Below the pieces are notes generated by a model, which was not told where the DNA came from, did no database searches, and saw nothing but the letters and a program-made list of their open reading frames with translations. Below are positions 11,741 through 46,834 of a stretch of DNA of 64,000 nucleotides, piece by piece; the first letter of the stretch is position 1; every line of letters starts with the position of its first letter. Location: positions 12,838 to 76,837 of the forward strand of contig CP065011.1 of assembly GCA_016699795.1 (NCBI GenBank). Reading direction: 5' to 3'. Position numbers and translations under genes: made by a program. This DNA comes from Candidatus Moraniibacteriota bacterium (lineage in GTDB: Bacteria; Patescibacteriota; Minisyncoccia; Moranbacterales; GCA-2747515).

Positions 11741-13315
11741 TTACACATCATTTCCGGAATAAGAAAGATTAAAACTTTTATTAATCAAAGGAAAATCTGG
11801 AACAATATTATTAAGACCAGCATCTTTCAGGGCTGACCAGTTTACAAACGAAGGATCTCTCGGTGCAACCCGATTCAGTTGACCTTTAGCATCAGTAGTT
11901 ACAAAATAAATAATTTCTCCCCGCCAACCTTCTACAGCACTTACGGTTAAGAAATTCTTTTTGCACACAATTTTACCCTTAGCAACAGCATTAATTCGTC
12001 CTTCTGGTAATGAATTCAAGGCCTTTTGAATAATTTTTATTGCAACACGTACTTCTTCAATACGAACATGAAATCTCGCATATACATCTCCACTTGTACG
12101 AAGCACCATTTTCTTAGGAAAAAGTTCACTATAAGCCGCATAAGGATTATCAATTCGAACATCTTTTGCCAAACCAGCCGCCCTTCCAGCAACACCCATA
12201 GCACCACAATCTTTGGCATTTTGGGTCGAGAATATACCGGTATCCTTGAGTCGATTCAATACTGAGGCACTATTTTCAGCAATTTCAATTACTTCAGAAA
12301 AATCTTTACTTAAATTTTTCAAATCTTTAGACAATCTTTCTTTTTCTTTCTTATCAATATCTTTCGTTACTCCTCCAATAATATTAACATTCCGAAGAAA
12401 TCGACTTTTAGTAATTCTTTCGTTCATTCGCATAACAATTTCTCGTAATCGAGCTCCTTGTGCTCCTCCGAAATTAAAACCAACATCTGTCATAATAGCG
12501 CCGATATCGCCAAGATGATTGGCTAGCCTTTCCATTTCAGCATAAATAACTCGAAGATAAAGTCCACGTTTTGGAACATCTGTACTACTCAACGTTTCCA
12601 ATGCCTGACAAAATGCAAGACTATGACTGAAAGAACTATCGCCAGAAATTTTTTCCGATAGTTTCACACCTTCTTCAAAAGAAAGTTTTTCGAATAATTT
12701 TTCACTTCCTTTGTGCGTAAATCCGAGACGTGGTTCCAATGAAACAATACGCTCTCCAGCAACGCTAAAACGAAAATGGCCAGGCTCAATAATACCCGCA
12801 TGAATAGGTCCAACAGGAATTTCATAGATGCCCTCTCCTTTCACTTCATAAAAATCATACGTTCCTTTTGCCTCTGCTGGTTTCGTGTTCAATTCAAAAT
12901 CTTTTCTTAAAGGAAAAACATCTTCTGGCCAATTTTCATGCAATATCAATGGCCTAGAATCATAAATATCTACAGACTTAAGACCAAAAAATGTCTGTAT
13001 TTTTCTCTCGTAATTCAAAGCCTCATGAACAATAAGAGCAATTGAAGGGAATTCTGTTGTGTCTTTTAAACTAAGAAAAGGTATAATATAAGCATTTTCT
13101 TGAGGTAAGCCGAAAATATACCAAATTTTAAAACAACCATTTTCTTTTCTTTCATCAGTTGCTGTAATAAGTTTCAAAGAGAAATTTTTATTGTGATACA
13201 AATCCTGAACAAAATCTTTTATCTCTGTAACGGAAATTTCAAAAACTCCGATAGTATCAAAAATTTCAAGTTTTGCCTTCTTAGGAATAATTTCTTGTAT
13301 TTTTTCTTTAATCAT
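11741..13315 (-). CDS. Fused NuoC/NuoD-like (HycE/HyfG-type large subunit-like) protein lacking NiFe-site cysteines
   Basis: N-terminal 30-kDa (NuoC)-like segment, then PVGPIHAGIIEPGHFRF (NuoD/EchE signature); position of RxCGxCxxxH reads KISGDSSFSHS and position of DPCxxC reads DPSFVN, so all four Ni-Fe cysteine ligands are replaced. Confidence 0.75.
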   Translation of the reverse strand: MIKEKIQEIIPKKAKLEIFDTIGVFEISVTEIKDFVQDLYHNKNFSLKLITATDERKENGCFKIWYIFGLPQENAYIIPFLSLKDTTEFPSIALIVHEALNYERKIQTFFGLKSVDIYDSRPLILHENWPEDVFPLRKDFELNTKPAEAKGTYDFYEVKGEGIYEIPVGPIHAGIIEPGHFRFSVAGERIVSLEPRLGFTHKGSEKLFEKLSFEEGVKLSEKISGDSSFSHSLAFCQALETLSSTDVPKRGLYLRVIYAEMERLANHLGDIGAIMTDVGFNFGGAQGARLREIVMRMNERITKSRFLRNVNIIGGVTKDIDKKEKERLSKDLKNLSKDFSEVIEIAENSASVLNRLKDTGIFSTQNAKDCGAMGVAGRAAGLAKDVRIDNPYAAYSELFPKKMVLRTSGDVYARFHVRIEEVRVAIKIIQKALNSLPEGRINAVAKGKIVCKKNFLTVSAVEGWRGEIIYFVTTDAKGQLNRVAPRDPSFVNWSALKDAGLNNIVPDFPLINKSFNLSYSGNDV

Positions 13316-14760
13316 ATCAGTAACATTTTAACAGCATCGTTAATTAACGTTGATAAAAATAATGGCATATAAAAACTCAAAAGAATAAAAATGCCCATAA
13401 GAATACAAGGAGGAATGATTAACCAAATACTTTCATTCTTTCTTTCAGCCCCCACTAGCTTTTTACCAAAAACCATAACGCTCACATGCTTGAAAAATCC
13501 AATAAACAAAATAGCCATAAGAAGTAAGGCGAAAATACTTACGAAAGGATGTGTTTCTATGCCTTGGGAAAGAATGATCATTTTACTGAAAAATACACCT
13601 AGTGGCGGAGCACCTGTAATAGCAAAAAAGCCTAGTAAAAAAACAACGCTCGTAACAGGTAGTGTACTCAAAATTCCCCTAATATTAGGAATTTTTGTGG
13701 AACCATAGGTAAGAAATATTGTTCCGGCAGAAAGAAACAATGTTGATTTGAGCAAAGAATGGTAAATCATATGAAAAATAGCACCGAGAGCACCTATGCC
13801 CCCGAGTCCAAAACCGAGAGCCATAATACCCATATTTTCAATACTTGAATAAGCAAGTAGTCGTTTGTAGTTTTTTTGGGTCAAAATAACTAACGTAGCA
13901 ATAAGAATTGAAAGTAAACCGAAAATAATTAATAAATTTTGAGTAAAATTTTCATTGACAGCTATATCAGTAATAACTTTAAATCGCAAAACAATAACCA
14001 ATGCCACATTCAACAAAACACCTGAAAGTAAAGCGCTGATTGGCGCAGGAGCCTTGCTGTGTGCATCTGGCAACCACGTATGCATTGGCGCTAAACCAAC
14101 CTTCGTTCCATAGCCAATTAATACAAATATAAAAGCAATTTTTGCAATCAAAGGATCAAGTTGTGTTGCATTTTCCGTAAGAGATTCCCAACTTATAAAT
14201 CCATTTTCATTTGCCGAATGTGTGGAAGTAAAATATAAAAGAGTTCCCAAGAAACCAAGAAGTAGTCCGACAGAATTAATAATCAGATATTTCCAAGCCG
14301 CCTCGATAGCAGATGGTTTATTATAAAAACTAATAAGAAATGCCGTAGAAAGTGTCGTGGCTTCAATAGAAATCCAAGCAAATATAGGGTTATTAGCAGA
14401 AATTGCCAATACCATAGCTATCAAAAAAAGATTTAATAAAACAAAATATTGCCTTACTCGAGTGAATCCAACTGCTTTTTTTTCGGTTTCTTTTCGTAGA
14501 TAGGGAATAGAATATATAACTACAACAAATCCTACACAAGAAATTAAAAGTAATAAAATAGCACCCAAAGCGTCTACAGAAAAAATTGAAAACGAAGAAT
14601 ATTTTCCAGAAAGACTCACCTTTAAGGCAATATTTATTGACTCTACAAAAACAATAAAAGAAGAAATAACCGAAGTTAACTCAATGATGATTCGGTTCTT
14701 TGTTAAAAGCCCTACACCCGCACTGATACATAAGAAAATGAAAATAAATAATAATTCCAT
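13312..14760 (-). CDS. NuoN/NuoM/HyfD-F/MrpD-like antiporter-type membrane subunit
   Basis: 482 aa, ~14 TM helices, conserved proton-pump-family segments (GYGTKVGLAPMHTWLPDAHSKAPAPISALLSGVL); 4-nt overlap with downstream gene. Confidence 0.7.
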   Translation of the reverse strand: MELLFIFIFLCISAGVGLLTKNRIIIELTSVISSFIVFVESINIALKVSLSGKYSSFSIFSVDALGAILLLLISCVGFVVVIYSIPYLRKETEKKAVGFTRVRQYFVLLNLFLIAMVLAISANNPIFAWISIEATTLSTAFLISFYNKPSAIEAAWKYLIINSVGLLLGFLGTLLYFTSTHSANENGFISWESLTENATQLDPLIAKIAFIFVLIGYGTKVGLAPMHTWLPDAHSKAPAPISALLSGVLLNVALVIVLRFKVITDIAVNENFTQNLLIIFGLLSILIATLVILTQKNYKRLLAYSSIENMGIMALGFGLGGIGALGAIFHMIYHSLLKSTLFLSAGTIFLTYGSTKIPNIRGILSTLPVTSVVFLLGFFAITGAPPLGVFFSKMIILSQGIETHPFVSIFALLLMAILFIGFFKHVSVMVFGKKLVGAERKNESIWLIIPPCILMGIFILLSFYMPLFLSTLINDAVKMLLI

Positions 14761-14764
14761 ATTG

Positions 14765-15418
14765 TTAATCTTTTAAACTCTTCATAGAAGTTATATCAAG
14801 TGAACCAAAATGCTTATGTATCATAGAAACAAAAACCGTAGTAATAACAAGCCAAATAAAAATATCAAATATAATACCCAATTGAAACATTAATGATTGC
14901 TCCAGATTAGCAAAAATCGCAAAGGCAACAATGCTATTTTCAAAAGAAAGAATACCAATAATTTGCGAGAGAACACCTTTTCGATTAATAATCAAAAAAA
15001 GTGAAACGAAAATTGAAGAAAGTGCCAAAGCTAATAATGTCTGATTTGCAGGAAGAATTTCAGTCAGAGGAGAAAACTTTTGAGAATGAGCGATGAAAGT
15101 TAATATAGCGATAACCATCAAAGTTAAAGGGGTATTTAAATACGTACTTGCAGAAAAAGTCAGTTCGTATTTTTGAATTAATTTTATAAAAAATAATGAA
15201 GCAACAATAACCTTAACAATCAGCACAAGTAAAGCAATAAAAAGCAAAGAAATATCACCTGTTTCAAAAAAATAACCCAAAAAAAGTATCGTTGTAATTA
15301 TCAAAGATTGAAGACCATATGCCAAAGAAGCTCCTAAATTCTTTTTTGCAATATGTAAAAACACAATAGTGCCGAAGAAAAATATCCCCAAGGAAAGTTG
15401 TAAAGTCAAAATACTCAT
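14765..15418 (-). CDS. HyfE-like small polytopic membrane subunit
   Basis: 217 aa hydrophobic protein, size and position as hydrogenase-4 component E in hyf/mbh-type operons; 4-nt overlap with upstream gene. Confidence 0.45.
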   Translation of the reverse strand: MSILTLQLSLGIFFFGTIVFLHIAKKNLGASLAYGLQSLIITTILFLGYFFETGDISLLFIALLVLIVKVIVASLFFIKLIQKYELTFSASTYLNTPLTLMVIAILTFIAHSQKFSPLTEILPANQTLLALALSSIFVSLFLIINRKGVLSQIIGILSFENSIVAFAIFANLEQSLMFQLGIIFDIFIWLVITTVFVSMIHKHFGSLDITSMKSLKD

Positions 15419-16347
15419 AATCGATAAATGAGGCCAAGTGCCACGACATTAAGAATAAAAGAGGTTAGCAAAAGATCAGGTAATCGAAAAAATCGAAACT
15501 TCGCCATACTTGATTCGATAAGAGCTATAAAGAAGCAGAAAATTCCTATTTTTATCATAAAAACAATAATTCCTATGGCGATAGCCGATATTTCCGCACT
15601 TTGCGCTAAGCCAACGGGGAAGAACAAATTCGCCCCTAATGCAAAAAAAATCAAAAGTTTATTAGAAGAAGCCCATTCCATAAGAGCGAGTCTCTTTCCT
15701 GAATATTCCAAAATCATAGCCTCATGGACCATTGTTAGCTCTAAGTGTGTAGCTGGATTATCAAATGGAAATCGTGATGTTTCAGCAAGAAGAATAATAA
15801 AAAATCCACTAAAAACAAAAAAGACGGAAAGAAAATCTTTTCCTTGCGCAAATATATCAGAACTAGAAATGGCAAATACATCCGTTGTGCCACTTATGAT
15901 AGCTATTACCAAAAGAGAAAAAACAAAACCTCCTTCTGCTAATGCAGAAAGAGTCATTTCTCGGCTAGAACCAAATCCTCCGAAAGCGCTTCCCGTATCC
16001 ATACCAGAAAGTGCCAAAAAAAATGTTCCGATAGCCAAAGTATAAATAATAATAAGAATATCCCCAGTCAATTTATTTTCAAAAAATGATCCAAATAAAG
16101 GAATACTCATACCCACAACAAGAGTTGCTGTGAATATAATAAATGGAGCATAACAAAAAATCCAAGAAGCATCTGTGCTTATAACTTCATCTTTATGAAG
16201 AAGTTTCCATAGATCTCTGTAAGGCTGAAAAATACTTGCACCCCTTCTGTTTTGAAGTATTGCCTTTATCTTTCTTATAATGCCCACACATAAAGGCGAT
16301 ACGAGAGGTACAAAAAGAATTTGAATAATCCAAATAAAGATAGTCAT
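15415..16347 (-). CDS. NuoH/HyfC/HycD-like membrane subunit
   Basis: 310 aa polytopic protein with NuoH-family loop SRFPFDNPATHLELTMVHEAMILEYSG (cf. R-PFD-E-ESEL). Confidence 0.65.
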   Translation of the reverse strand: MTIFIWIIQILFVPLVSPLCVGIIRKIKAILQNRRGASIFQPYRDLWKLLHKDEVISTDASWIFCYAPFIIFTATLVVGMSIPLFGSFFENKLTGDILIIIYTLAIGTFFLALSGMDTGSAFGGFGSSREMTLSALAEGGFVFSLLVIAIISGTTDVFAISSSDIFAQGKDFLSVFFVFSGFFIILLAETSRFPFDNPATHLELTMVHEAMILEYSGKRLALMEWASSNKLLIFFALGANLFFPVGLAQSAEISAIAIGIIVFMIKIGIFCFFIALIESSMAKFRFFRLPDLLLTSFILNVVALGLIYRL

Positions 16348-16349
16348 AA

Positions 16350-18401
16350 TTAGAGTATTATAAATAAAGCTACTATTAAGGCAATAAGTATATAGAGAAT
16401 GTAGACGCTAATATTTCCACTCTGAATATTTTTTGCTCGCAATGAAATCTTCATGAGCAAATCACGCAATGGTTGATAAAAATAAGATTGATTAATATCT
16501 CGAACGCCCAAAGTGACAGCTTTTGATTTTGGTAAATATCTTGTTTCAGAATCATGATATTCAATTTCATGTTGAATGGTTGGTTTCAATATACCCTTGA
16601 AGATAAGAATGATAGATTGAGCGAAACCCGTAGCTGTTATTTCCATGCGTGGCTTTAAATCAGTTCCGCAATCCCAAGTAAGACCCGTCTCTGTTTTTTG
16701 TTCTTTATATATGAGATATCGAACGACACCCACAACAAAAAGAATAGTGATGCCAAAAATTAGAAAAAATACAAGTCCTGAAACGGAAGCAAAGCCATTT
16801 CCCACAAGTATTGTTTGATTTTCTGACAAAGAAACAGCAGAAGATGTTGTTTTGAAAATATCAAGACTTTTTCCTATTTTTTCAAGAAAAAACGTTATCT
16901 TTCCAGAAAATATTCCAAATAAAAGAGATAATACTGCCAATGAACCCATTCCAAAAAGAAGGAAAAATGAAGATTCCTTCGTATGAAAAATTTCTTCACT
17001 TCTTGGTCTAGCTAAAAATGTCACTCCAAAGGCCTTTACAAAACAAGCAAGTGCCAATCCCCCAGTAAATGCAAGTGATCCCACCGCAATCATAAAAATC
17101 CATTTTGCGGAAGAACTTAACATCATAATCCCCTGAAATAATGATTGAAATGTTAACCATTCACTAAAAAATCCATTAAATGGAGGTAGCGCGGATATAG
17201 CCATCGATCCGATCAAAAAGAAAAATGCTGTTTGGGGCATATATTTTATTAAACCACCATATTCTTCCATGTTTCTTGTGTGCGTCTGGCTAATAACCGA
17301 TCCCGCGCTCAAAAAAAGTAAAGATTTGAAAATAGCATGATTTGCGATATGAAAAAGAGTTGCTGTTAAGCCAAGAAGAGCGAGTGAAGGAAAATGTAAT
17401 GAAGAGAAAACAAGAGCACTCCCAAGACCAAGAAGAATAATCCCAATGTTTTCAATACTGTGATACGCCAAAAGTCTTTTTATATCATGTTCAGCAAGTG
17501 CATACAAAACACCAAGAAGAGAAGATACAGCTCCAATAATAAGAATGGCAAGTCCCCACCATACTGGAACAGGTTGAAGAATGTCCAAAAATAATCGAAT
17601 CATCATAAAAATACCTGTTTTGATCATCACGCCCGACATCAAAGCAGAGATATGAGAAGGTGCTGCAGGGTGAGCAGCTGGAAGCCAAATGTGAAATGGA
17701 ACAATACCAGCCTTCGTACCAAATCCAATTATGGCACAAAGAAAAATAATATCTTTCACAAAAAGCGGGACAGCTACAGAACCCAATTTCATGGCTTCAA
17801 AATCAAATGATCCCGTAAATTTATACAACAACAAAAAAGAAATCAAAATAAAAGCTGTTCCAATATGAGTCATAACCAAATACAAAAAACCAGCTTTTAC
17901 ATTATTTTCATCTTTATGGTCATACACAACAAGAAAATAGGAAGCGATCGACATAATTTCCCAAGCAATAAGGAAAAAAATAGCATTCGAAGCAGTTACT
18001 ACAAAAATCATTCCCAAAATAAATAGATGAGAAAAAAATCCCAAAGCTCCGATGCTATATTTTTTATAGAAATGTTTTATATACCCAATACCATAAAAAG
18101 AACAAAAAAGCGTAATCAAAGAAATGATAAAAATAAAGAATGCGGAAAGCATGTCAATACGAAAGGACAATGAAAAGAAAGAAAGTGGTGCTGTCCACAA
18201 AATAAAAGACAAGGAATTTCCAGAAGAAATCATAAAACCAGAAAAAACCAATCCCCAAAGAGATCCTCCTATAGCAAAAAAACTATTCCAAATATTCGCC
18301 AAAACATCATCTTTTTTTACAAGTAAAGAACCCAATGCTCCAACAAAGAAAAGAAGTATCAAAAAAGAAAAACTGATCGGGGATGTAATAATTTCCACCA
18401 T
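16350..18401 (-). CDS. NuoL/HyfB/MrpA-like antiporter-type membrane subunit
   Basis: 683 aa, ~16+ TM helices, proton-pump-family segments (FGTKAGIVPFHIWLPAAHPAAPSHISALMSGVMIKTG). Confidence 0.75.
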   Translation of the reverse strand: MVEIITSPISFSFLILLFFVGALGSLLVKKDDVLANIWNSFFAIGGSLWGLVFSGFMISSGNSLSFILWTAPLSFFSLSFRIDMLSAFFIFIISLITLFCSFYGIGYIKHFYKKYSIGALGFFSHLFILGMIFVVTASNAIFFLIAWEIMSIASYFLVVYDHKDENNVKAGFLYLVMTHIGTAFILISFLLLYKFTGSFDFEAMKLGSVAVPLFVKDIIFLCAIIGFGTKAGIVPFHIWLPAAHPAAPSHISALMSGVMIKTGIFMMIRLFLDILQPVPVWWGLAILIIGAVSSLLGVLYALAEHDIKRLLAYHSIENIGIILLGLGSALVFSSLHFPSLALLGLTATLFHIANHAIFKSLLFLSAGSVISQTHTRNMEEYGGLIKYMPQTAFFFLIGSMAISALPPFNGFFSEWLTFQSLFQGIMMLSSSAKWIFMIAVGSLAFTGGLALACFVKAFGVTFLARPRSEEIFHTKESSFFLLFGMGSLAVLSLLFGIFSGKITFFLEKIGKSLDIFKTTSSAVSLSENQTILVGNGFASVSGLVFFLIFGITILFVVGVVRYLIYKEQKTETGLTWDCGTDLKPRMEITATGFAQSIILIFKGILKPTIQHEIEYHDSETRYLPKSKAVTLGVRDINQSYFYQPLRDLLMKISLRAKNIQSGNISVYILYILIALIVALFIIL

Positions 18402-18402
18402 A

Positions 18403-18945
18403 TTATTTTAATTTAGGAGATGTTTGATCTAAATCTTCAAGAATTTTAAGAAGAGAAAAAAGGATTACTTTGGGAGTTGGAGGATCACCAGGAATTTGAT
18501 AATCCACAGGAATAACAGAATTCACTCCCCCAGAAACAGCGTATGATTCTTTAAAAATTCCCCCATCAATAGCATCATCCCCTACTGCTACAACAATTTT
18601 TGGATTAGGCGTTGCTTTGTAAGCTCGACGTAACGATTCAGCCATATTGCGTGTCACTGGGCCAGTAACAAGTAGCATATCCGCATGTCTTGGAGAAGCC
18701 ACGAAGTGAATTCCGAAACGCTCAAGATCATAAAAGGCATTTGAAAGTGCGACGAGTTCCTGTTCACAAGCATTATCTGAACCAGCATCTACTTGACGAA
18801 TAGCCAAAGAACCTCGAAACAATCGATTTACTTCGTTTTTTATCTTCTTCCCCACCCGTATAACTTCAGTTTCATCAAAATCTTTTCCTTCTGGAGAAAC
18901 TACATTCTTCTGAGTTTTTACTATTTTTAGAAAAAGTTTAAACAT
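18403..18945 (-). CDS. NuoB-like (hydrogenase small-subunit-like) protein lacking all Fe-S cluster cysteine ligands
   Basis: Aligns along its length with NuoB/Nqo6 (ERFGIHFVASPRHADMLLVTGPVTRNM..., NSVIPVDYQIPG), but CCxxE reads DNACE, GxCxxSGG reads VGDDAIDGG and PGCPP reads PGDPP. Confidence 0.75.
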   Translation of the reverse strand: MFKLFLKIVKTQKNVVSPEGKDFDETEVIRVGKKIKNEVNRLFRGSLAIRQVDAGSDNACEQELVALSNAFYDLERFGIHFVASPRHADMLLVTGPVTRNMAESLRRAYKATPNPKIVVAVGDDAIDGGIFKESYAVSGGVNSVIPVDYQIPGDPPTPKVILFSLLKILEDLDQTSPKLK

Positions 18946-24684: not shown

Positions 24685-26307
24685 TTATTCACATCTCTCT
24701 TTCAAATATTTTTTTGAATATCCAGAAAGAAGAAAAGGAAATGTCGCTAAAATTTGACCATTTTGAGCTCGAAGCGTTGAAACCAGCGCAAGCTGACCAG
24801 AAAGAAAATTTCTCGTAGTCGAAAGTCCGGGACGATAAAAATTTAATGCCCGAATCCGAAGACGATCAATACTCTCTATTATCTCTTGAGGAATTTTGGG
24901 AATACTCTTTCGAATGAAAGTCTCCAACTCCTCGAAAGTCATATCAGCCCACTCTTGAGGAACACTCCATTCAAAATGAGAAAGCGATTGAAGAATCTTC
25001 TCCGGAACATCTTCCGGTATCTGTTCTGAAATAAAAACAGGAACAGGACTTTTAATCAGTCGAGTGATATCTTCACCGAAACTCTCATTTATCATTCGTC
25101 TCTCCCCTTCTGGAAAATGCAACCTCTTTCGATTGGCTCGAATAATAGAAGCCGCAAACCCTACAACAAAAGAAAGAGTGAAAATTCCTCCGTTAGAGCA
25201 CTCATTTACCGGAAAAGGTAGAGCTGCTTCATACGGGCCTCGGGCTCGATTGGTTATCACTACGACACTTTCACTGTGGTGTTGATATGGATACGATCCT
25301 CTTTTATTGAGCAATAAACCCAAAACACCATTAGCAAGAAGGAGGAAAGATCGTAAACGAAATTCCTCTAGAGACATCTCTTGAGAAAGAACATTACAAA
25401 GATCTCTCGAAACAGCGAGAAGCATTTCGTAGCCAGGCTCTGAAATTCCTCCCCAAAGTCGAAACATGCTTTCAGCATAGTCTCGATCAAAATCGATTGT
25501 ACCAATATTCCTTTTTATTTCCTCCGTGATGAATTTAGACAATCCGTCCTCTTTTTTTGCAAAAACTTCTGTTGAAAGGATTTTTCCTTCTCGAGAAAGT
25601 TCTTTTAAAACGGAGTCTGTGAAACCTTCATGGACAACACGCGGGTCAGAAAGTACGAGAGGTTGTTCTAATCCCATGAACAAGAATCCTGATCGAACAT
25701 CGAAAGATACTTGGATAACAGATATCTTGCATGATTCTTTCGGACCAAACTTCTTCCGAGAAAAATCTTGTATAGCATCCGCAATCAATTTCTTTCGAGA
25801 AACATCCTGAAAAAGTCCATTATCAAGAGAAGAAACTCCACAAGACAAAATTTCTTCTTCTCCTTTTGCAGCGCAATAACTATGACTATCTAGAATCACA
25901 AAAGCTCTTCCAAAACGCTCAACACGCTCAAGAATTTCTTGAGTAAAATCTCCTTCTTTAAGGAAGAAACTACCATCTTGTCTACAAAGAGCATCCGAAA
26001 TATCTGCTGCAGGAGTTCGAAAAGAAACAAAGGGTAAACCAAATACTGTTTCCGAAAGAACTCTCCCGTCAATACAGAATACTGGAATTACGGATTCGAT
26101 AGGAAGAAAGAAAATCCTTCTAATGATTGAATCCACCTTTTGCATTCCGATAGATTCAAAATCTGCCACTCTCGCATTTCTTGTTCTCACGAATTCTTCT
26201 ATAAGAAAACGAAGATACTGAATCTCAGGTGATTGAATAGTCCTCCCAAAAAGAGAAGCAAAATTTTCAATGTATCGTGGTATGTTTTTCAAAAAACTAT
26301 CTCCCAA
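24685..26307 (-). CDS. Large hypothetical protein (540 aa), GC-richer than neighbours
   Basis: Long uninterrupted ORF with non-repetitive composition; no motif I can assign. Confidence 0.5.
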   Translation of the reverse strand: MGDSFLKNIPRYIENFASLFGRTIQSPEIQYLRFLIEEFVRTRNARVADFESIGMQKVDSIIRRIFFLPIESVIPVFCIDGRVLSETVFGLPFVSFRTPAADISDALCRQDGSFFLKEGDFTQEILERVERFGRAFVILDSHSYCAAKGEEEILSCGVSSLDNGLFQDVSRKKLIADAIQDFSRKKFGPKESCKISVIQVSFDVRSGFLFMGLEQPLVLSDPRVVHEGFTDSVLKELSREGKILSTEVFAKKEDGLSKFITEEIKRNIGTIDFDRDYAESMFRLWGGISEPGYEMLLAVSRDLCNVLSQEMSLEEFRLRSFLLLANGVLGLLLNKRGSYPYQHHSESVVVITNRARGPYEAALPFPVNECSNGGIFTLSFVVGFAASIIRANRKRLHFPEGERRMINESFGEDITRLIKSPVPVFISEQIPEDVPEKILQSLSHFEWSVPQEWADMTFEELETFIRKSIPKIPQEIIESIDRLRIRALNFYRPGLSTTRNFLSGQLALVSTLRAQNGQILATFPFLLSGYSKKYLKERCE

Positions 26308-28564: not shown

Positions 28565-28718
28565 ATATCTTTTTTATTTTTTTATTCTCTCACTGATCTC
28601 CTTTTATTACAAAATTTAGAAAACTATGAGAGAAAATAAAGATTAACAATACGATTCTTCTACGTAGAAAATCCCCTTTAATAAGGGGATTTTTTGCTAT
28701 AAAACACTCTATGCCAAT

Positions 28719-30161
28719 TTAGGGTTGTATTTCTTTCCAAATCTCATCATCATTAACATTACCTGATTTTGGAGGGTATTTAAGAAAGAGAAGCTTTGTA
28801 GAGTCAGGATTATAATTTGTTTTTGTTACTCTTATTGTTCCAGAACATTTATCTTGAACGCTTGTAATTATTCTTGTCGAAGATGTTCCTGCTGACATGC
28901 TTAAACAAGAAGATTTTGAATTTGTCCAAGCAACCCCTTCAGCAGGAAGTCCTGTAGAGCTATCACATACAGTCATTACAGCAGAATCCTTTATGGCAAG
29001 AATTTTACTTTCAGGAAAAAATGATCCATTACAATCACTTCCTGACCTGAGGACAAGACTTTTCTTCTCAATGATAACCTTATCTTGTTTTGTAAATGGA
29101 ATATCTTTTGTGCAAGAATTTCCAAAAAGAGTATAGTTTAGCCTTATAGACGGACCAGAAAGAACTGTTCCAGGAGCTCCTATTTCACCTATAGCCGTAT
29201 AATTAATGGTGAATGTTCGAGAATCTCCAGATTTCATATCTGGAGAAGAATTATTCCAAGTGAGAAGAGATCCAATTTTTGAATTCCATCGAGGAGTTGC
29301 ACTTACTACTGTTACATATATTTCTTCTGCTGGGAAACTTATTGATATATCTTCCATCAAAAATGGCTTTCTAATTTCTCTAAAAATATTTTCGAAAATA
29401 GTCTTCAGATCATCTGCATTTCCTTGTGAATAAAAACCTTTTCCTGTTCCTGCTGTGGTAGCAATTTTTACAAGATTTTCTTTATTAAATTCAGTACCAC
29501 TGTCAGTAATACCTATGGTATACACCGTTACATCGCTTGGAACTGCATTTATACCCGCACTTATTGGTGGGTTTGTATTATGAGCACCATCTGAAGCCAA
29601 AATAATAAATTTATTTGAATCTGGATTTCCATTTGAATTCATATGAGTTCCCGCCGTAAGGAGACCTCCTCCGATAGAGGTAGCTCCCACTGCAGTAATT
29701 CTATCAATTGAATTTTTTACTGCTTGAAAATTTTCGGATAATCCATAATCCAATGTTGTGTCTGATGAAAAAGTCACTAAACTAGCTCTACTTCCTCCAT
29801 TTTTGTCTTTTGCAACCATATCAACAGCCTCTTTGAGAACGCTTTTTGCAGCATCTATTTTGATCTTTCCCGAAGCATCTGGCCAAGCCATAGAACCAGA
29901 TCGATCCATAACAAAAACGACATCCACATTTCCTCCATCTTCAGTGTTAGCATCGCCCGTTACTTGAAAAGAAAAAGTTGTTGGAATAGTATCTCCAATA
30001 TAAAATGTATTCCCACTAATTTCATGCTTGACGTTGGGAAATAATGCCCCACAATTTGCCGGGGAAGCAGCTTGAACAGAAGAATATAATCCTCCCAAAA
30101 AAAGAAGGAAGGAAAAGAAGAAAGCCACTCCTATTGTTCTCATACTTGTATAAAATTTCAT
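28719..30161 (-). CDS. Secreted von Willebrand factor type A (VWA) domain protein
   Basis: Signal peptide ending VQA-AS; MIDAS motif DVVFVMDRSGSMAW (DxSxS); beta-rich C-terminal region with several Cys. Confidence 0.75.
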   Translation of the reverse strand: MKFYTSMRTIGVAFFFSFLLFLGGLYSSVQAASPANCGALFPNVKHEISGNTFYIGDTIPTTFSFQVTGDANTEDGGNVDVVFVMDRSGSMAWPDASGKIKIDAAKSVLKEAVDMVAKDKNGGSRASLVTFSSDTTLDYGLSENFQAVKNSIDRITAVGATSIGGGLLTAGTHMNSNGNPDSNKFIILASDGAHNTNPPISAGINAVPSDVTVYTIGITDSGTEFNKENLVKIATTAGTGKGFYSQGNADDLKTIFENIFREIRKPFLMEDISISFPAEEIYVTVVSATPRWNSKIGSLLTWNNSSPDMKSGDSRTFTINYTAIGEIGAPGTVLSGPSIRLNYTLFGNSCTKDIPFTKQDKVIIEKKSLVLRSGSDCNGSFFPESKILAIKDSAVMTVCDSSTGLPAEGVAWTNSKSSCLSMSAGTSSTRIITSVQDKCSGTIRVTKTNYNPDSTKLLFLKYPPKSGNVNDDEIWKEIQP

Positions 30162-30164
30162 TAA

Positions 30165-31178
30165 TTATTCTTTTATATCTTTTGCTGGAGGGCCAACAAA
30201 TACTGATTCAGCAACCAAAACAGCTTCTCCTGATTCTACTTCTGAAACAAAAACATCACCCGAAAGAACAAAGGCTATACTATCTCCTTCTGCCACTTCT
30301 TGAAAACCAATCTTTTTTGTCCCCGTTTCTTTAAAAATTGTCTGTCCTCCGACTTCTTGCAGAGTACCCAAAGTCTTAGTAATGCCATTTTTTTGAGAAT
30401 CTCCGGTATTTACTTTTACCGTTGTATACACACCATCACCATTGCTATCAACACTAACCCTAATTGCATCCATATCTTTCCCTATTACAGTACCACTCAG
30501 CGTTCCCACAATAGGCTCTTCTTGAATAGATTCTTCATTTTGAAAAGTAGAAGATTCAACATTTTGAGGAACTATCGGAAATTCTTTTTCATCTTTAACG
30601 CTCTTAGAAAACACTTCAAGAAATATCCACCAGAAAAGAACGAGAATGATAACAGTAGAAAGAGAAGAAATTATCGCAGAAAAAAGTATAATTTTTCGTG
30701 TTGATTGTTTTGGATAGGAAGTTCTACGAGAAACCTCCTCCTTAACAGCTTTTTCAAATTGTTCTTTTGTATAAGAAACTTCTTGTTTTTTGTTAGCCAC
30801 CAACTCTTTAATGTGCTGTACAACTTTTATCGGAGCTGAAAACCCACGAACAAAATATCCATCAATACCAAGATTTTGAGATCGTTTTCTATCTTCATCA
30901 CGGTCAATATGGCTATTAATGATGAAGAATGGGGTATTTTCTCTCATTTCTGAGCGTATCTTTTCTATCAACGAAAACCCATCCATACCAGACATTTCTA
31001 TTCCAGTAAAGACAACATCAAAATGGTGCTTTTGAGAAAGTAAAAAAGCGTCTGTTCCATTGGAAGCTGTAGTAACCTCCAACCCCGCTAATGTCATGGA
31101 TTCCTGATAAATTTCCAAAGTAGAACGATCATCATCTACAACAAGAACTCGTATTTTTATTTTCATATTTGTATACAT
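30165..31178 (-). CDS. Membrane protein: N-terminal receiver-like (pseudo-REC) domain, one TM helix, extracytoplasmic beta-rich domain
   Basis: VLVVDDD...DVVFTGIEMSGMDGF aligns with CheY-type DxxMPxMDG but phospho-acceptor position is Gly; TM ILFSAIISSLSTVIILVLFWWIFL; stop 3 nt before VWA start. Confidence 0.65.
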   Translation of the reverse strand: MYTNMKIKIRVLVVDDDRSTLEIYQESMTLAGLEVTTASNGTDAFLLSQKHHFDVVFTGIEMSGMDGFSLIEKIRSEMRENTPFFIINSHIDRDEDRKRSQNLGIDGYFVRGFSAPIKVVQHIKELVANKKQEVSYTKEQFEKAVKEEVSRRTSYPKQSTRKIILFSAIISSLSTVIILVLFWWIFLEVFSKSVKDEKEFPIVPQNVESSTFQNEESIQEEPIVGTLSGTVIGKDMDAIRVSVDSNGDGVYTTVKVNTGDSQKNGITKTLGTLQEVGGQTIFKETGTKKIGFQEVAEGDSIAFVLSGDVFVSEVESGEAVLVAESVFVGPPAKDIKE

Positions 31179-31180
31179 TA

Positions 31181-32488
31181 TTAACTCCTTTCATTTATTA
31201 TACTTGAGTTTCTTTCTTCTTGCAAAAATTCTTTATTAGTTTCTTCTAAACATTCAGAAGGAAGTTCTTGAGCTTTTTTTAGCCTCTTTTCAATAGTACG
31301 ACTTTTCGAAGATGCTCGTTCAATAGCATTGCTCGCTTCTTGAAGCTTCTTATGTGTTTTATCCAAAATATCACCAAAAACAGAGAATTCTTTCTTTACT
31401 GTAGCTAGGAGCTCCCATACTTGACTAGATTGTTTCTCAATCGCCAAGGTACGAAATCCCATTTGTAAACTATTAAGAAAAGCTGCAATTGTTGCTGGAC
31501 CAGCAACAACGATACGATATTCTCGACGAAGCACATCAGCTAAGCCCCCTCGACGAAGAACCTCGGCATATAATCCTTCATTAGGAAGAAAAAGTATACC
31601 AAAGTCAGTAGTAGTTGGAGGATCAAGATATTTATCTCGAATATCCTTGGCCTCACTTTTTATACGTATTTCTAATTGTTTTGCATAATAATCAATCTTT
31701 TCTAAATCACCCTTTTCCGAAGCATCCACCAATAATTGATAATCCTCCAAAGGAAATTTAGCGTCTATAGGAAGAAGAACATACTTTCCATCTTCACGTT
31801 TTGCTGGAATTTTTATAGCAAATTCAACTCGATCATTCGATCCTAGTTTTGTAGCGACATTTATATCGTATTGTTCAATAGTAAGAATATCCGCAAGAAG
31901 ATTTCCCAATTGTGCTTCTCCCCATGTTCCTCGAGTTTTTACATTTTGAAGAACTTTCTTAAGATCCCCCACACCCAGAGCAAGTGTTCTCATTTCTCCA
32001 AGTCCTTTATAAACAGATTCTAATTGAACTTGAACTTTTACAAATGAAGCGTCTAGACGTTTCTCTAAAGTATTATGAAGTTTTTCATCCACTGTCTGTC
32101 GCATTTTCTCAAGTTTTTCAGCGTTATCTTTTTGAAGAATAAGAAGTCTTTCTTCTACAACCTTACGGATATCTTCCATTCTGTTTTCATTTTTTTCGAT
32201 AAGCTCAGCAAGTTGTTTGCGAAAACGTTCAAGGCCTTCTCCTTGAGATTGGGAAATGCCTTTTAAAATATCTCTCAATTCTTCACGAGAATCCTGATTT
32301 CCTCGAGACATTTCTTGACGACCTTGATACGATTCTTGTCTAAGAAGTAAAAGAATACTTTTTTCCATTCGATCCATTCGATCCAAAAAGAAATTTTCTT
32401 TCTCATTTTTTTCGGAACTTTTTTTAAATAGAAAGAAAAGAATGGCTACGCCAATAAATACATTTCCAAAAAGAAGATATTTTTCCAT
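31181..32488 (-). CDS. rmuC: DNA recombination protein RmuC
   Basis: N-terminal TM, long coiled coil, C-terminal RmuC nuclease-like region with LPIDAKFPLEDYQ motif. Confidence 0.75.
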   Translation of the reverse strand: MEKYLLFGNVFIGVAILFFLFKKSSEKNEKENFFLDRMDRMEKSILLLLRQESYQGRQEMSRGNQDSREELRDILKGISQSQGEGLERFRKQLAELIEKNENRMEDIRKVVEERLLILQKDNAEKLEKMRQTVDEKLHNTLEKRLDASFVKVQVQLESVYKGLGEMRTLALGVGDLKKVLQNVKTRGTWGEAQLGNLLADILTIEQYDINVATKLGSNDRVEFAIKIPAKREDGKYVLLPIDAKFPLEDYQLLVDASEKGDLEKIDYYAKQLEIRIKSEAKDIRDKYLDPPTTTDFGILFLPNEGLYAEVLRRGGLADVLRREYRIVVAGPATIAAFLNSLQMGFRTLAIEKQSSQVWELLATVKKEFSVFGDILDKTHKKLQEASNAIERASSKSRTIEKRLKKAQELPSECLEETNKEFLQEERNSSIINERS

Positions 32489-35280: not shown

Positions 35281-36171
35281 TTACAAAACAGCTACTCGAG
35301 CCGGACGAATTATTTTTCCTTTAAAGCGATATCCTTTCTGAATAATTTTAGAAATTTTTATAATAGAGGATTCTTGCTTTTCTTCTTCACTTTCTTTTTC
35401 TGATTCAAGATTTCCCCTATTTTCAATCGCTTCATGAATCTCTGGATCAAACACATCTCCCTCTTTCACTTCAATCTCTTCTACATCTATTTCACGAAGT
35501 ACTCCTTCGAGTTGTTTGTGAATATAGGTTATTCCTGTAACCCAAGGATCATTCTCATGATCTTTGGGAACATGCACAATTGAAGATGAAAAATTATCGA
35601 TCACGGGAAGAAAATTTAAAACCACATCCTCTACCGCACGAACAGAAATTTCTCTTCCGTATACCTCTTGTCGCTTTTTAAAATTTTCAAAATCCGCCAA
35701 GCAACGCCTCCATCCAAGTAATGATTCCTTACTTTCCTTATATTCTTTATAAGAAAGAATTGCATCTTTACTATCTTTTTCAAGCTCCATATCTAAAGCT
35801 TTTGAAAGATCAAACCATTTGTATTCATTATTATGAGTTTCATTTTCAATCTCATCTACCTCATCTTTGAGAGAAAAAAGAGAAATACAAGAAAGATATT
35901 TTTCACCCTCTACGGTAGTAAAAGAAAAAGACAATTTATCTTCAACACTCACTCGCATATTCATTTCTTCGTAAATTTTTTGAACGAAAAATTCTTCAAA
36001 AGATTCTTCGATGCTTACGCTTCCTTTAGGTATACCAAAAGGAACATTCCCTTCCTTTTCTTTAACAAAAAGAATATTTCCAAATTCATTCACAATAATA
36101 CCCTGAATAAAACATTGAGACATCATCCCTTTTCCTTCTTTAATTTTTTCTTCTTTCTTATCCATATACAT
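35281..36171 (-). CDS. grpE: GrpE nucleotide-exchange factor with N-terminal degenerate Nudix-like domain
   Basis: C-terminal ~150 aa: LADFENFKKRQEVYGRE..., LPVIDNF, DPEIHEAI (GrpE core). N-terminal ~140 aa: IQGIIVNEFGNILFVKEK...GIPKGSVSIEESFEEFFVQKIYEEMNM fits GX5EX7REUXEEXGU with RE->QK and G->M. Confidence 0.7.
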   Translation of the reverse strand: MYMDKKEEKIKEGKGMMSQCFIQGIIVNEFGNILFVKEKEGNVPFGIPKGSVSIEESFEEFFVQKIYEEMNMRVSVEDKLSFSFTTVEGEKYLSCISLFSLKDEVDEIENETHNNEYKWFDLSKALDMELEKDSKDAILSYKEYKESKESLLGWRRCLADFENFKKRQEVYGREISVRAVEDVVLNFLPVIDNFSSSIVHVPKDHENDPWVTGITYIHKQLEGVLREIDVEEIEVKEGDVFDPEIHEAIENRGNLESEKESEEEKQESSIIKISKIIQKGYRFKGKIIRPARVAVL

Positions 36172-44451: not shown

Positions 44452-46834
44452 TTAACGACGAACTCTTATTTGGCAACTATCAAATTCATTTTTACAATAG
44501 TATGTAATAGTTCCTGAAACATCTGTGCGCACTATTCGGACATCTCGTTCTTCCAATCGTTTTAGTATATCACTATCAGGATGACCATATTTATTATCAT
44601 TCCCAACAGAAATTATAGCGTCTATTGGATGAATTTTTTCCAAAAAATTTTCTGTTGTAGAAGATTTTGATCCATGGTGCGCTACCTTCAGAACGTCCAC
44701 ATTTGAGACATCAAGGAAAGACTCTTGCTCTCCTGGAAGATCCCCCGTAAAAAGAAATGATTGTGCCCCATATTCCAAAAAAAGAACAAGACTGGCTTTA
44801 TTAATATCCTTTTCGGCTTCTTTAATTTTTCCAGAAGGATGTAAAATATTCACAACAGCCCCATTAGGAAAGACAAAACGATCTCCCCAAGAAAAAACTT
44901 TTCTTGGGGTAGTATATGTTTCGAGATTCGTTCTCCATGCCCTATAGACAGCAGTATCTTTCTCTGTGTTCGTCTCTCCCACAAGACCTATCTCATACAC
45001 AGGCATAAGTTCAGAAAAACCTCCTATGTGATCCGCATCCGGATGAGTCGCTATCACCATCTCAATATGTCTGTCATTGTATGGCATTTCTTGACGCAAT
45101 CGATCAAGAAGAATTTTTGGATTCGGTCCTCCATCAATAAGTACTTGTATATTTCCTGAAGAAAGTAAAATAGCGTCTCCCTGACCAACATCTAAAAAAG
45201 AAACTTTTATACCAGAAGAGTCTTTCCAAGTGCTCTGAAAAATATGCCAGCCAAAAACAAACGTCATTCCTCCCAAAATAAATAGAATCCAAAAAAGGAT
45301 CGTGCTATTTTTCACCAGCCTCATAAAGCTCACATTGTAAATATTTTTTCCTTCGATTTTTCACATAATACCAAAAAAGTACAAAAAGGATAGCCCCATA
45401 ATACATATATGAAAAATCCATCGAGAAAGATGAGATAGAAAAAAACGAAAAAGAAGAGATACTATCTATAACAAAAAGATTATAAGAAAGAATCAAAGAA
45501 GCCCCCAAACCAAAAAGTTTCGCAAGAAAAAAAGAAAAAGAACTTACTACAAGAGCAAAAAAGAGAAAAAACATAACCAATGGTATATTCCAAAGAATAA
45601 GAATATTAGCAAACAAAGAAAGAAAAGAGAAAGAGCCAAATGTTCCTAGTATAAGTGGGAGAACAAATAATTGTGCGGCCAACGTAGTCAAAAAAATTTC
45701 AATGAAAATTTCCACTATCCAGGGAAATTTTTGCTTGTTCCATTTAGTTACTATTATAGGAACGCCCAAAAGAATTCCTGCCGTTGCTAATACGGACAAT
45801 TGAAAACCAACATCGTATCGAAGAATAAACGGATTATCAAAAACCATCATCGCACTTGCCAAGAGAAGAGCTCTCGTACCAGAACCTATTACACCACCTC
45901 GCACAGCAAAGAGAACGAGAATACCCATAATGCCGGCACGAACTCCAGAAGCTGGAAATCCTATAAGAGCAAGAAAGAAAAAAATACCAAGGACGCCAAT
46001 CCACCAAGAATGTTGTCGACGAATACCTATGGCAATAGCAATAAGAGAAAAATATTGAACCAAAAGGGTAACATTATACCCCGAAACCGCTACGATATGA
46101 GTCATAGAAGTATTATTAAATTTTTCCTCCCATTCTTTGCTAAATCGAGAGGTCCCTCCAAAAAGTAATCCCGAGCCAAGAGCGCTTTCTGGGAAAGGAA
46201 GGATTTTTTCTAATCGACTTTCCCAATCAGATCGCATATCCGCTAATCGCGATTGCCAAGTAATCGTTCTTTCTCCAGTTTTTCGAGGATTATAATCATA
46301 GCAAAAAAGAACTGGCCCACGAGAAGCAAATATTCTTTTCCAATCCATTTGAGTTTCCTTGTCATATTCAGGAATTTCCCAATTGCATGAAACATAAACA
46401 TGTTCTCCCTGCTGATAATTTTCCCATAATTGAGTACGTAAGAAGGCCTCCTCTTAAAAACAATCTCCCCTATCACAATACTGAAAAACAAAAGGAACTC
46501 TTTGCGTTGAATTTTCTTTCACAGATGATCCAGAAATGACAACTTCTTGAGAAAAAGCTGTTCCAGAAATACCTTCAATGAAAGAAAAATCTGTCTTTTT
46601 TGAAAAGATTAATAAGAAAAAAGGAAGAGAAAGAAAAAAAATAACATAAGGGTATATATGCCTATTTTCATAGAATCCTCCAAGAAGAGCCATTCCTAAT
46701 CCGAAACTCAAAAAAAAGATAATCCAAGAAAATTTAAAAAAAAGAATACTTATTGCACCAACAAGAAGGGCTATCGAAAAAGAAACCAAACCGTCAGATA
46801 CAAAAAGAATCTTCTTTTGTTCAAAAGAGAGCAT
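44452..46834 (-). pseudogene. comEC: ComEC/Rec2 DNA-uptake channel gene broken into three pieces (in-frame TAA at 46454-46456; frameshift in 45305-45333 overlap)
   Basis: Piece 1 (46834..46454): N-terminal TM/OB region, continues in same frame after TAA (...CDRGDCF*EEAFLRTQLWENYQQGEHVYVSC...). Piece 2 (46348..45305): competence domain (TSMTHIVAVSGYNVTLL). Piece 3 (45333..44452): metallo-beta-lactamase domain (VSFLDVGQGDAILL...ATHPDADHIGG) in a different frame. Confidence 0.65.

Follow-up and report, generated by a model that had tools for sequence, protein, structure and literature searches.

Membrane-anchored ectodomains encoded with predicted secreted VWA proteins in Patescibacteria, and a conserved pseudo-receiver domain joined to one clade of them

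ToxR-ToxS and TcpP-TcpH are bitopic one-component regulators with a co-encoded periplasmic partner. VWA domains with a metal ion-dependent adhesion site (MIDAS) form the extracellular domain of the integrin I-domain receptors, and in BatA-type or MoxR-type systems VWA proteins act as partners. The Tad pili have both an atypical receiver, TadZ/CpaE, and TadG-type VWA proteins. Here we describe a pair of adjacent genes that recalls parts of these systems, located in a 64,000-nucleotide (nt) stretch of the genome of Candidatus Moraniibacteriota bacterium (contig CP065011.1, positions 12,838 to 76,837; hereafter the window), a member of the Patescibacteria or Candidate Phyla Radiation (CPR). The upstream gene codes for a receiver-like domain followed by a transmembrane (TM) helix and an ectodomain, and the downstream gene for a VWA protein with a predicted signal peptide. 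Comparison across related loci links the VWA gene to the ectodomain of its neighbor and not to the receiver-like domain, which is itself a conserved pseudo-receiver.

Pseudo-receivers (PsRs), or aspartate-less receivers (ALRs), are defined as domains that are computationally recognized as receivers but are devoid of key phosphotransfer residues, notably the acceptor Asp, with RitR, ChxR, FrzS and HP1043 as examples (Bourret et al., 2025, PMC12632262; Maule et al., 2015, PMC4395418). The window protein resembles them in its match to PF00072, its canonical receiver fold, the missing acceptor Asp and the phosphorylation-independent function that is expected from it. Gly accounts for 11% of ALR substitutions, and the Gly-type ALR was uncharacterized as of 2015 (PMC4395418). 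Among PsRs as a whole the residue missing most frequently is DD2, and the Asp, the Thr and the Lys are individually retained in ~65% (PMC12632262); the window family, in contrast, retains both DD residues and loses Asp, Thr and Lys together. A further difference is the C-terminal TM tether with an extracytoplasmic domain, in the place of a DNA-binding or enzymatic output. Membrane-anchored lineage-specific output domains of response regulators have been noted before, e.g. MetOD3 in archaea (PMC5847659); in the literature we found no paper on the present ectodomain family, on its pairing with a secreted VWA protein or on a membrane-tethered Gly-type pseudo-receiver, and nothing relevant to the pair in work on pseudo-receivers with VWA, on VWA proteins in Patescibacteria/CPR or on membrane-anchored response regulators.

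The family to which the upstream protein belongs is small. About ten members of the pseudo-receiver family were found in 5.8 billion proteins searched, while an exhaustive hidden Markov model search of 1.84 billion cluster representatives with a profile of the ectodomain gave 22 matches, namely five pseudo-receiver fusions, about thirteen receiver-less proteins and four repeat proteins. The last (P0058, P0063, P0065 and P0074) were rejected as spurious, their matches consisting of multiple short stretches in repetitive sequence; the repeat nature was read directly in P0058 and P0074. The receiver-less proteins, 120-190 amino acids (aa) in length, nearly all consist of a short basic tail followed by a TM helix and the ectodomain, with two seemingly truncated at the N-terminus, and comparison of these receiver-less partners with the ectodomain by hhalign (probabilities 94.9% and 84.8%) establishes their homology. 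A scan of genome contigs with the full-length family alignment recovered mostly ordinary receivers, with family members only at two loci (L008 and L009), and a scan of metagenome contigs with a family-specific alignment from β4 to α5 recovered five clean loci. Every retrieved locus was scanned with profiles for the three modules, i.e. receiver, ectodomain and VWA.

All twelve distinct loci coding for the ectodomain have a VWA-family gene directly downstream (12/12), on the same strand and at gaps of ≤37 nt where gene calls exist, and none of the four distinct loci that code for the pseudo-receiver without the ectodomain has one (0/4; Table 1). Thus, it is the ectodomain and not the pseudo-receiver with which the VWA gene is linked. 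The Fisher value for this count, ~5e-4, is only indicative because the loci are phylogenetically related. As the linkage is present in five loci with receiver-less proteins, the core module comprises the bitopic anchor and the secreted VWA protein. The pseudo-receiver is in turn a portable cytoplasmic module, which was fused to the anchor in one clade of the Moranbacteria and, in a second one, to a TM helix alone. The first-pass annotation of this DNA had joined the pseudo-receiver and the VWA protein in one module, and had named absence of the pair from relatives as a refutation. The pair is kept in the relatives, and a conserved pair of membrane protein and VWA protein is what stands of that proposal; the link that it drew from the pseudo-receiver to the VWA protein does not, since the link follows the ectodomain, with the receiver-less loci keeping the VWA gene and the ectodomain-less ones lacking it.

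These counts bear on the simplest alternative, that the two genes are unrelated in function and are neighbors only through a compact genome and inherited gene order. The genome is indeed small, with tiny intergenic gaps everywhere (the RmuC gene ends only 2 nt from the first ATG of the receiver gene), and the closest relatives have wider stretches of synteny in common. However, the pair is kept in 12/12 loci while both flanks change completely, the differing neighbors including RmuC, ParB or a pilin-like gene, RecA, ribosomal genes (S7), FtsZ and radical-SAM genes, and the linkage tracks the ectodomain even where there is no receiver and is gone where there is no ectodomain. We therefore consider mere neighborhood extremely improbable.

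The ectodomain-less form is a short paralogous pseudo-receiver of 176-187 aa, made of a receiver and a bare C-terminal TM helix (L008 5983..6525, L009 5986..6516, L099-L102 and the protein P0010). At the four distinct loci its gene is located between a divergent MacB-like ABC transporter (ATPase and FtsX permease) and a gene for a 419-aa membrane protein, which looks thioredoxin-like or DsbD-like by eye and gave no Pfam match. The short pseudo-receiver and these neighbors may constitute a second conserved module built on the same pseudo-receiver. One of the loci, L009 (contig CAZJZN010000009.1), comes from a metagenome-assembled genome labelled 'uncultured Bdellovibrionales', although its synteny and its protein sequence are close to those of the Moraniibacteriota locus L008; the label may be a binning or labelling error.

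The receiver-like domain itself is readily recognized: Pfam Response_reg (PF00072) matches residues 11-113 with an E-value of 5.9e-17 (62.3 bits against a gathering cut-off of 30.2), and the AlphaFold2 model of this part shows five strand-helix units in the (βα)5 flavodoxin-like fold, with a predicted local distance difference test score (pLDDT) of ~90. In Foldseek comparisons the model superimposes on CheY4, YycF, PhoP and VicR with root-mean-square deviations of 1.4-1.9 Å and target TM-scores of 0.86-0.93. The position of the phospho-acceptor Asp is occupied by Gly, in the motif VVFTGIEMSGMDG: in alignments by HMMER and MAFFT with PhoP, CheY4, E. coli CheY and PhoB, DVVFTGIEMSGMDG stands against DAVILDVMMPGMDG, and the Gly aligns with D57 of CheY and D53 of PhoB. 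Further, the conserved Thr at the end of β4 is replaced by Asn (motif IINSH), and the conserved Lys at the end of β5 by Arg, with the Pro that follows it replaced by Gly (motif FVRGF). The acidic DD pair after β1 is retained in a VDDD motif that is invariant across the family. A MAFFT alignment of 14 receiver-like domains of the family, which includes both halves of two tandem variants, together with E. coli CheY and PhoB, shows the Asp to Gly, Thr to Asn, Lys to Arg and Pro to Gly replacements in 14/14 domains, both tandem halves included. Conservation is strongest in β3, β4 and β5, with the motifs INSHxDxxxDR and DG[YF]FVRGF strongly kept, and extends to the third Asp of VDDD and to Asn84, Ser85 and His86, which are invariant.

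Thus, the upstream receiver is a conserved pseudo-receiver as defined in PMC12632262 and PMC4395418. As none of the three residues that bind the phosphoryl group (Asp, Thr and Lys) is left, it is predicted to be incapable of acting as a phospho-switch. The Gly had been read from the single sequence in the first-pass annotation, along with the caution that a correct alignment might restore an Asp; Gly is found at this position in every alignment made, and the substitution is a trait of the whole family.

The domain could still be an active receiver of an atypical kind, phosphorylated elsewhere (at the third Asp of VDDD or at Ser85) by a kinase encoded elsewhere in the genome, or with a pocket that binds a metal or a small ligand. 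The invariance of the DD pair, the third Asp, Asn84, Ser85 and His86 speaks for this, as it suggests that the pocket is under selection for something. The replacement of the Asp, Thr/Ser and Lys phosphoryl contacts in every member, which makes it a pseudo-receiver by both published definitions, speaks against it. With regard to a kinase, phmmer searches with six kinase-containing queries found neither a histidine kinase nor a second receiver among the open reading frames (ORFs) of the window, which represents ~5% of the 1.19-Mb genome and so leaves this alternative some room; no kinase was called next to the gene in any of ~17 related loci either. On balance we judge a residual receiver activity very unlikely.

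Two family members carry tandem pseudo-receivers ahead of the TM helix, P0003 (L088 1382..2704) and P0009 (L089 6001..6876), with the Gly, Asn and Arg substitutions present in both receiver copies. Such tandem variants would fit a dimer-type function.

Between the receiver and the membrane lies a conserved helical linker. The TM helix is the sole hydrophobic segment of the upstream protein, with a Kyte-Doolittle peak of 2.7 (19 residues), and the net charge of +5 before it and -2 after it indicates an N-in, C-out orientation. The extracytoplasmic domain of ~115 residues is all-β and devoid of Cys, and its final residue is an invariant Glu in the fusions. Pfam scans of the ectodomain at E-values up to 10 retrieved no convincing family; the weak Pfam matches of its family members are largely to oligonucleotide/oligosaccharide-binding (OB) fold families, and nearly all the best Foldseek matches in the PDB are OB domains (the N-domain of LysRS, Rim1, RPA and Stn1). 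Hence, the modelled ectodomain is possibly OB-like.

The VWA protein too has a single hydrophobic segment, residues 7-30 at the N-terminus, and in all its homologs a hydrophobic stretch at the N-terminus precedes an A-x-A-like site; it is predicted from these features to be exported by Sec. Neither a lipobox, nor an LPXTG motif, nor a C-terminal TM helix is present in its sequence, which ends in the non-hydrophobic ...DDEIWKEIQP. The VWA domain is strongly recovered in Pfam (VWA, E-value 7.9e-18, 65.7 bits against a cut-off of 23.8; VWA_2, E-value 2.2e-14) and its MIDAS is complete, with D86, S88, S90, T161 and D191 invariant in 11 family members, which argues for metal-dependent binding of an acidic ligand. 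No convincing family emerged from a Pfam scan of the C-terminal region at E-values up to 10. Of the six Cys in the protein, three (C350, C399, C439) are invariant and a fourth, C377, is almost so; W302 is also conserved, and the conserved Cys of this region fit an oxidizing extracytoplasmic site. The protein closes with a W-x-E-[IV]-x-P motif (28722..28739 on the minus strand), found in 7/11 members, and this conserved end may serve in docking or sorting. A sister clade (P0040, P0041, P0043 and P0044) ends differently, in C-x-x-C-x-DG-x-DND-x-DG-x-IDYP-x-D-x-GC and an aromatic tail. The architecture proposed for both proteins in the first-pass annotation, i.e. one TM helix leading into a β-rich extracytoplasmic domain, and a VWA protein with a signal peptide, an intact MIDAS and a Cys-containing C-terminal region, is supported by the charge distribution, the AlphaFold2 model, the Pfam match and the alignment of homologs.

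In these features the VWA protein is comparable to the Gram-positive pilus-tip adhesins RrgA, GBS104 and SpaC and to TIGR03788, which likewise are secreted proteins with a complete-MIDAS VWA domain flanked by β-sandwich domains, at the surface of bacteria without an outer membrane. Unlike the sortase-assembled VWA adhesins, it has no LPXTG-type signal or C-terminal TM helix, and there are no sortase or pilin genes in the loci. A direct assignment to TIGR03788, the 'marine proteobacterial sortase target', was rejected at 33.9 bits against a cut-off of 551.65. The TadZ/CpaE and TadG pair offers another parallel, a receiver-like domain without the acceptor Asp in the same system as a VWA surface protein. 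A TadZ-type identity was also rejected: there is no fused ParA/MinD ATPase, the Pfam matches of the upstream protein beyond Response_reg being three below-threshold ones in residues 114-198 (E-values 0.005-0.07), none of them to a ParA/MinD ATPase, and there are no tad or pilus genes between ~11.7 and 50.9 kb of the window.

At the locus, three minus-strand ORFs follow each other head to tail, a gene of the RmuC family (31181..32488), the receiver-domain gene and the VWA gene. The last two are solidly established as tightly co-oriented neighbors and are almost certainly co-transcribed. The sequence GGAG lies 6 nt 5' of the first ATG of the receiver gene, and the terminator-like hairpin just beyond the VWA gene likely marks the end of the transcription unit, the genes past it being on the opposite strand. 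The G+C content of the window is 31-39% in 2-kb windows. The receiver protein is 100% identical to P0001, which comes from a 1.19-Mb contig of a Candidatus Moraniibacteriota metagenome-assembled genome. A 3-nt spacing of the two genes (TAA-tta-ATG), interpreted in the first-pass annotation as translational coupling, is what the ORFs give from the first ATG; with the NCBI starts, which are Met5 for the receiver protein (QQS61348.1, 333 aa) and Met7, at 30143, for the VWA protein (QQS61347.1, 474 aa), it becomes 21 nt, and in relatives with gene calls the same gap is 4-37 nt. As the short gap hinges on the choice of start codon, coupling in the strict sense is only plausible.

Table 1. Features of the gene pair in the window and arrangement of the related loci
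Feature	Coordinates or loci	Strand	Basis or remark
Pseudo-receiver/TM/ectodomain gene	30165..31178	-	ORF, 337 aa from first ATG; Pfam Response_reg
Pseudo-receiver domain, ~residues 9-128	30795..31154	-	PDB alignments, MAFFT alignment, AlphaFold2
GGA codon for Gly59 (NCBI Gly55), phospho-acceptor Asp position	31002..31004	-	Sequence and alignments
Single TM helix, residues 161-195	30594..30698	-	Hydrophobicity, charge, modelled helix
Extracytoplasmic seven-strand β domain, ~residues 223-337	30168..30512	-	AlphaFold2; tentatively OB-like
VWA protein gene	28719..30161	-	ORF, 480 aa from first ATG; Pfam VWA and VWA_2
Sec-type signal peptide, residues 1-31	30069..30161	-	Predicted cleavage after VQA (between VQA and AS)
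VWA domain, residues 80-257	29391..29924	-	Pfam; alignment to structures 4cn8 and 4rck
MIDAS DRSGS motif	29892..29906	-	Other MIDAS residues T161, D191
β-rich Cys-containing C-terminal region, residues 258-480	28722..29390	-	Alignment
Terminator-like hairpin and T-run	28673..28687	-	Just 3' of VWA stop; consensus scan, pattern match only
Pseudo-receiver + TM + ectodomain	Window, L001, L004, L006, L088, L094, L098		VWA-family gene directly downstream 7/7
Receiver-less TM + ectodomain	L091, L092, L095, L097, L103		VWA-family gene directly downstream 5/5
Pseudo-receiver + TM without ectodomain	L008 (= L099), L009 (~ L100), L101, L102		VWA gene downstream 0/4

Taken together, the evidence leads to the proposal, to which we assign a probability of about 0.5, that the anchor and the VWA protein form a complex of two proteins at the outer side of the cell membrane, with the pseudo-receiver as an interaction module. 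The VWA protein would be exported by Sec without an anchor of its own, and would present a MIDAS-type VWA binding domain alongside disulfide-stabilized β domains. The ectodomain of the bitopic protein would be its obligatory partner and most likely retains it at the cell surface; for an anchorless VWA protein whose gene invariably comes next after that of the ectodomain protein, a non-covalent surface complex is the simplest reading. The pair of anchor and VWA protein would represent the ancestral module, and one or two receiver domains would have taken the place of the anchor's short cytoplasmic tail in one clade of the Moranbacteria; having lost the three phosphoryl-binding residues, these domains would no longer work as phospho-switches. 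The pseudo-receiver most likely serves as a phosphorylation-independent interaction or dimerization module, probably via β4-α4-β5, and would connect the surface complex with a partner in the cytoplasm or promote its clustering. Such a role is suggested by the conservation of β3, β4 and β5 and their motifs, by the tandem versions and by the separate use of the domain on a bare membrane tether. The ligand of the MIDAS might be external or, purely hypothetically, the conserved terminal Glu of the ectodomain fusions or of the VWA tail.

An alternative reading would place the pair in envelope housekeeping, with the MIDAS-type VWA protein acting on an envelope component as an assembly factor or chaperone that depends on metal, the bitopic protein as its tether and the pseudo-receiver as a structural or oligomerizing tail. 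The neighbors at these loci, which are constantly of housekeeping character (DnaK/GrpE/HrcA, RmuC, EF-P, S6/SSB/S18, FtsZ and ribosomal operons), are in keeping with such a role, as is the envelope context of the ectodomain-less pseudo-receiver next to the MacB-like ABC transporter and the thioredoxin-like membrane protein. The VWA domain also finds its best bacterial sequence matches among the BatA/BatB proteins (NF047508), which are themselves membrane-associated VWA proteins: the best NCBIfam match is BatA-like (1.7e-9), and the BatA-like structure 4rck is matched at 1e-8. However, BatA itself has TM helices of its own and belongs to a MoxR-linked Bat operon, whereas the window protein has only a signal peptide and a separate anchor; the BatA match of 37.1 bits is far below the curated cut-off of 380, and there is no MoxR AAA+ ATPase or other Bat gene in the loci, and we accordingly rejected an identification as BatA. 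Moreover, C-terminal domains that vary and are rich in Cys are found more typically in proteins that lie exposed at the surface and face a ligand. A housekeeping role of this kind is conceivable but unlikely.

The membrane topology raises a further possibility, an outside-in sensor of an integrin-like kind, in which binding of a ligand to the MIDAS would alter the ectodomain and TM helix, and the pseudo-receiver would relay this to a cytoplasmic effector without phosphorylation, as could be compared with ToxR-ToxS. The window protein and its partner do present the combination of a cytoplasmic N-terminal signaling-type domain, a single TM helix, a periplasmic-type ectodomain and an extracytoplasmic partner encoded by the adjacent gene that is seen in ToxR-ToxS and TcpP-TcpH; they differ in that the cytoplasmic domain is receiver-like without a DNA-binding domain, that a secreted VWA protein takes the place of the small membrane protein as partner, and that there is no sequence relationship. 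The likeness to integrins consists in an extracellular MIDAS-type VWA domain that is presumably linked, and then non-covalently, to a single-pass protein with a cytoplasmic interaction domain; unlike in integrins, the VWA domain is on a separate polypeptide, homology does not extend beyond it, and bidirectional signaling is not implied. The conserved helical linker from receiver to TM helix would suit a sensor, as would the strong conservation of β4-α4-β5 of the pseudo-receiver, the usual output face of receivers (PMC12632262), and either the invariant terminal Glu of the fused ectodomains or the near-invariant Glu of the VWA tail could conceivably be a MIDAS ligand. Against this, the proteins have no output domain or identifiable cytoplasmic partner, and the single TM helix with a juxtamembrane segment that is poorly modelled by AlphaFold2 lends no support to a transmission mechanism. 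Further, 5/12 loci have no cytoplasmic domain beyond the short basic tail, and the core module thus works without a capacity for signaling. A sensor function of this type is consequently rather doubtful. The same degree of doubt applies to a more ambitious version, a CPR-specific integrin-like surface receptor whose MIDAS-type VWA protein would dock on the ectodomain, possibly via the terminal Glu, and which in the Moranbacteria would relay the binding of a ligand or host to a phosphorylation-independent receiver output.

To return to the proposed surface complex with the pseudo-receiver as an interaction module, several observations weigh against it. That the two proteins physically bind each other, what the ligand is and in which direction, if any, a signal would pass are matters that we infer, and to speak of an 'adhesin', of 'surface attachment', of 'signalling' or of host or external ligand binding by the VWA protein is likewise to interpret. 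The ectodomain is modelled with intermediate pLDDT (76-89 in the full-length model, and a mean of 73 when modelled alone from an 8-sequence alignment), and its OB matches are weak (E-values ~0.03, query TM-scores 0.34-0.41). EF-P, S18, SSB and S6 downstream are also syntenic in the closest relatives, so that part of the linkage within the clade reflects shared ancestry. The neighbors of the pair are housekeeping genes, and no pilus, sortase, secretion or adhesion genes are present between ~11.7 and 50.9 kb of the window. The limited share of the genome covered by the kinase search counts here as well.

The window at ~11.7-50.9 kb codes for complex-I-like/hydrogenase-like subunits, UvrB, S6, SSB, S18, EF-P, RmuC, DnaK, GrpE, HrcA, F-type ATP synthase, ComEC and NrdD. 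Among the ORFs of the window there is no second VWA protein (phmmer with the VWA query) and no second ectodomain (ectodomain profile). RmuC was rejected as a member of the module, being present only in the closest relative (L001-L003) and replaced elsewhere, and a pilus link was likewise rejected, a small pilin-like (N_methyl) gene being found upstream in L004 only.

Several other features of this region were encountered. The cluster at 11741..18945 on the minus strand codes for complex-I-like or group-4 [NiFe]-hydrogenase-like (Mbh/Mrp-type) membrane subunits, including a fused 30-kDa and 49-kDa subunit (524 aa), two Proton_antipo_M proteins, NuoH-like and NuoB-like proteins and a 217-aa protein without a Pfam match; to our knowledge respiratory complexes are generally absent from Patescibacteria, which makes this cluster unusual. 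An ORF of 540 aa between UvrB and S6/SSB/S18 (24685..26307, minus strand) begins with TTG and matched nothing in Pfam or NCBIfam. GrpE (35281..36171, minus strand) carries an N-terminally fused NUDIX domain, a fusion also called in L001-L003. ComEC (44452..46348, minus strand) appears split into two overlapping ORFs, Competence at 45305..46348 and a metallo-β-lactamase at 44452..45333, which could be due to a frameshift, a real split or an assembly error. In the relative L001 (15340..17023 onward; also in L002) a 1694-aa α-2-macroglobulin-like protein (MG2, A2M, TED, bMG10) is combined with Hint/intein-like domains.

The CPR/Patescibacteria live attached to or dependent on other cells, and we know of very few of their surface proteins to which a role has been assigned. 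The two-gene surface module of anchor and VWA protein, whose function is putative, appears to be confined to the CPR, and the strict linkage of ectodomain and VWA genes makes it a concrete candidate for a part of the CPR cell-surface interaction machinery; the organism being uncultured, its practical value is limited. Should the integrin-like receptor prove true, it would represent a new use of the receiver fold, which would form the cytoplasmic terminus of a receptor spanning the membrane and would not be the target of a kinase. The placement of a Gly-type pseudo-receiver on a membrane anchor is a modestly novel combination, and the family offers a clean natural example of a membrane-tethered domain of this type, which was uncharacterized in the 2015 survey (PMC4395418). 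In having lost the phosphoryl-binding residues but kept the acidic pocket and β4-α4-β5, it bears on the question of how pseudo-receivers work (PMC12632262).

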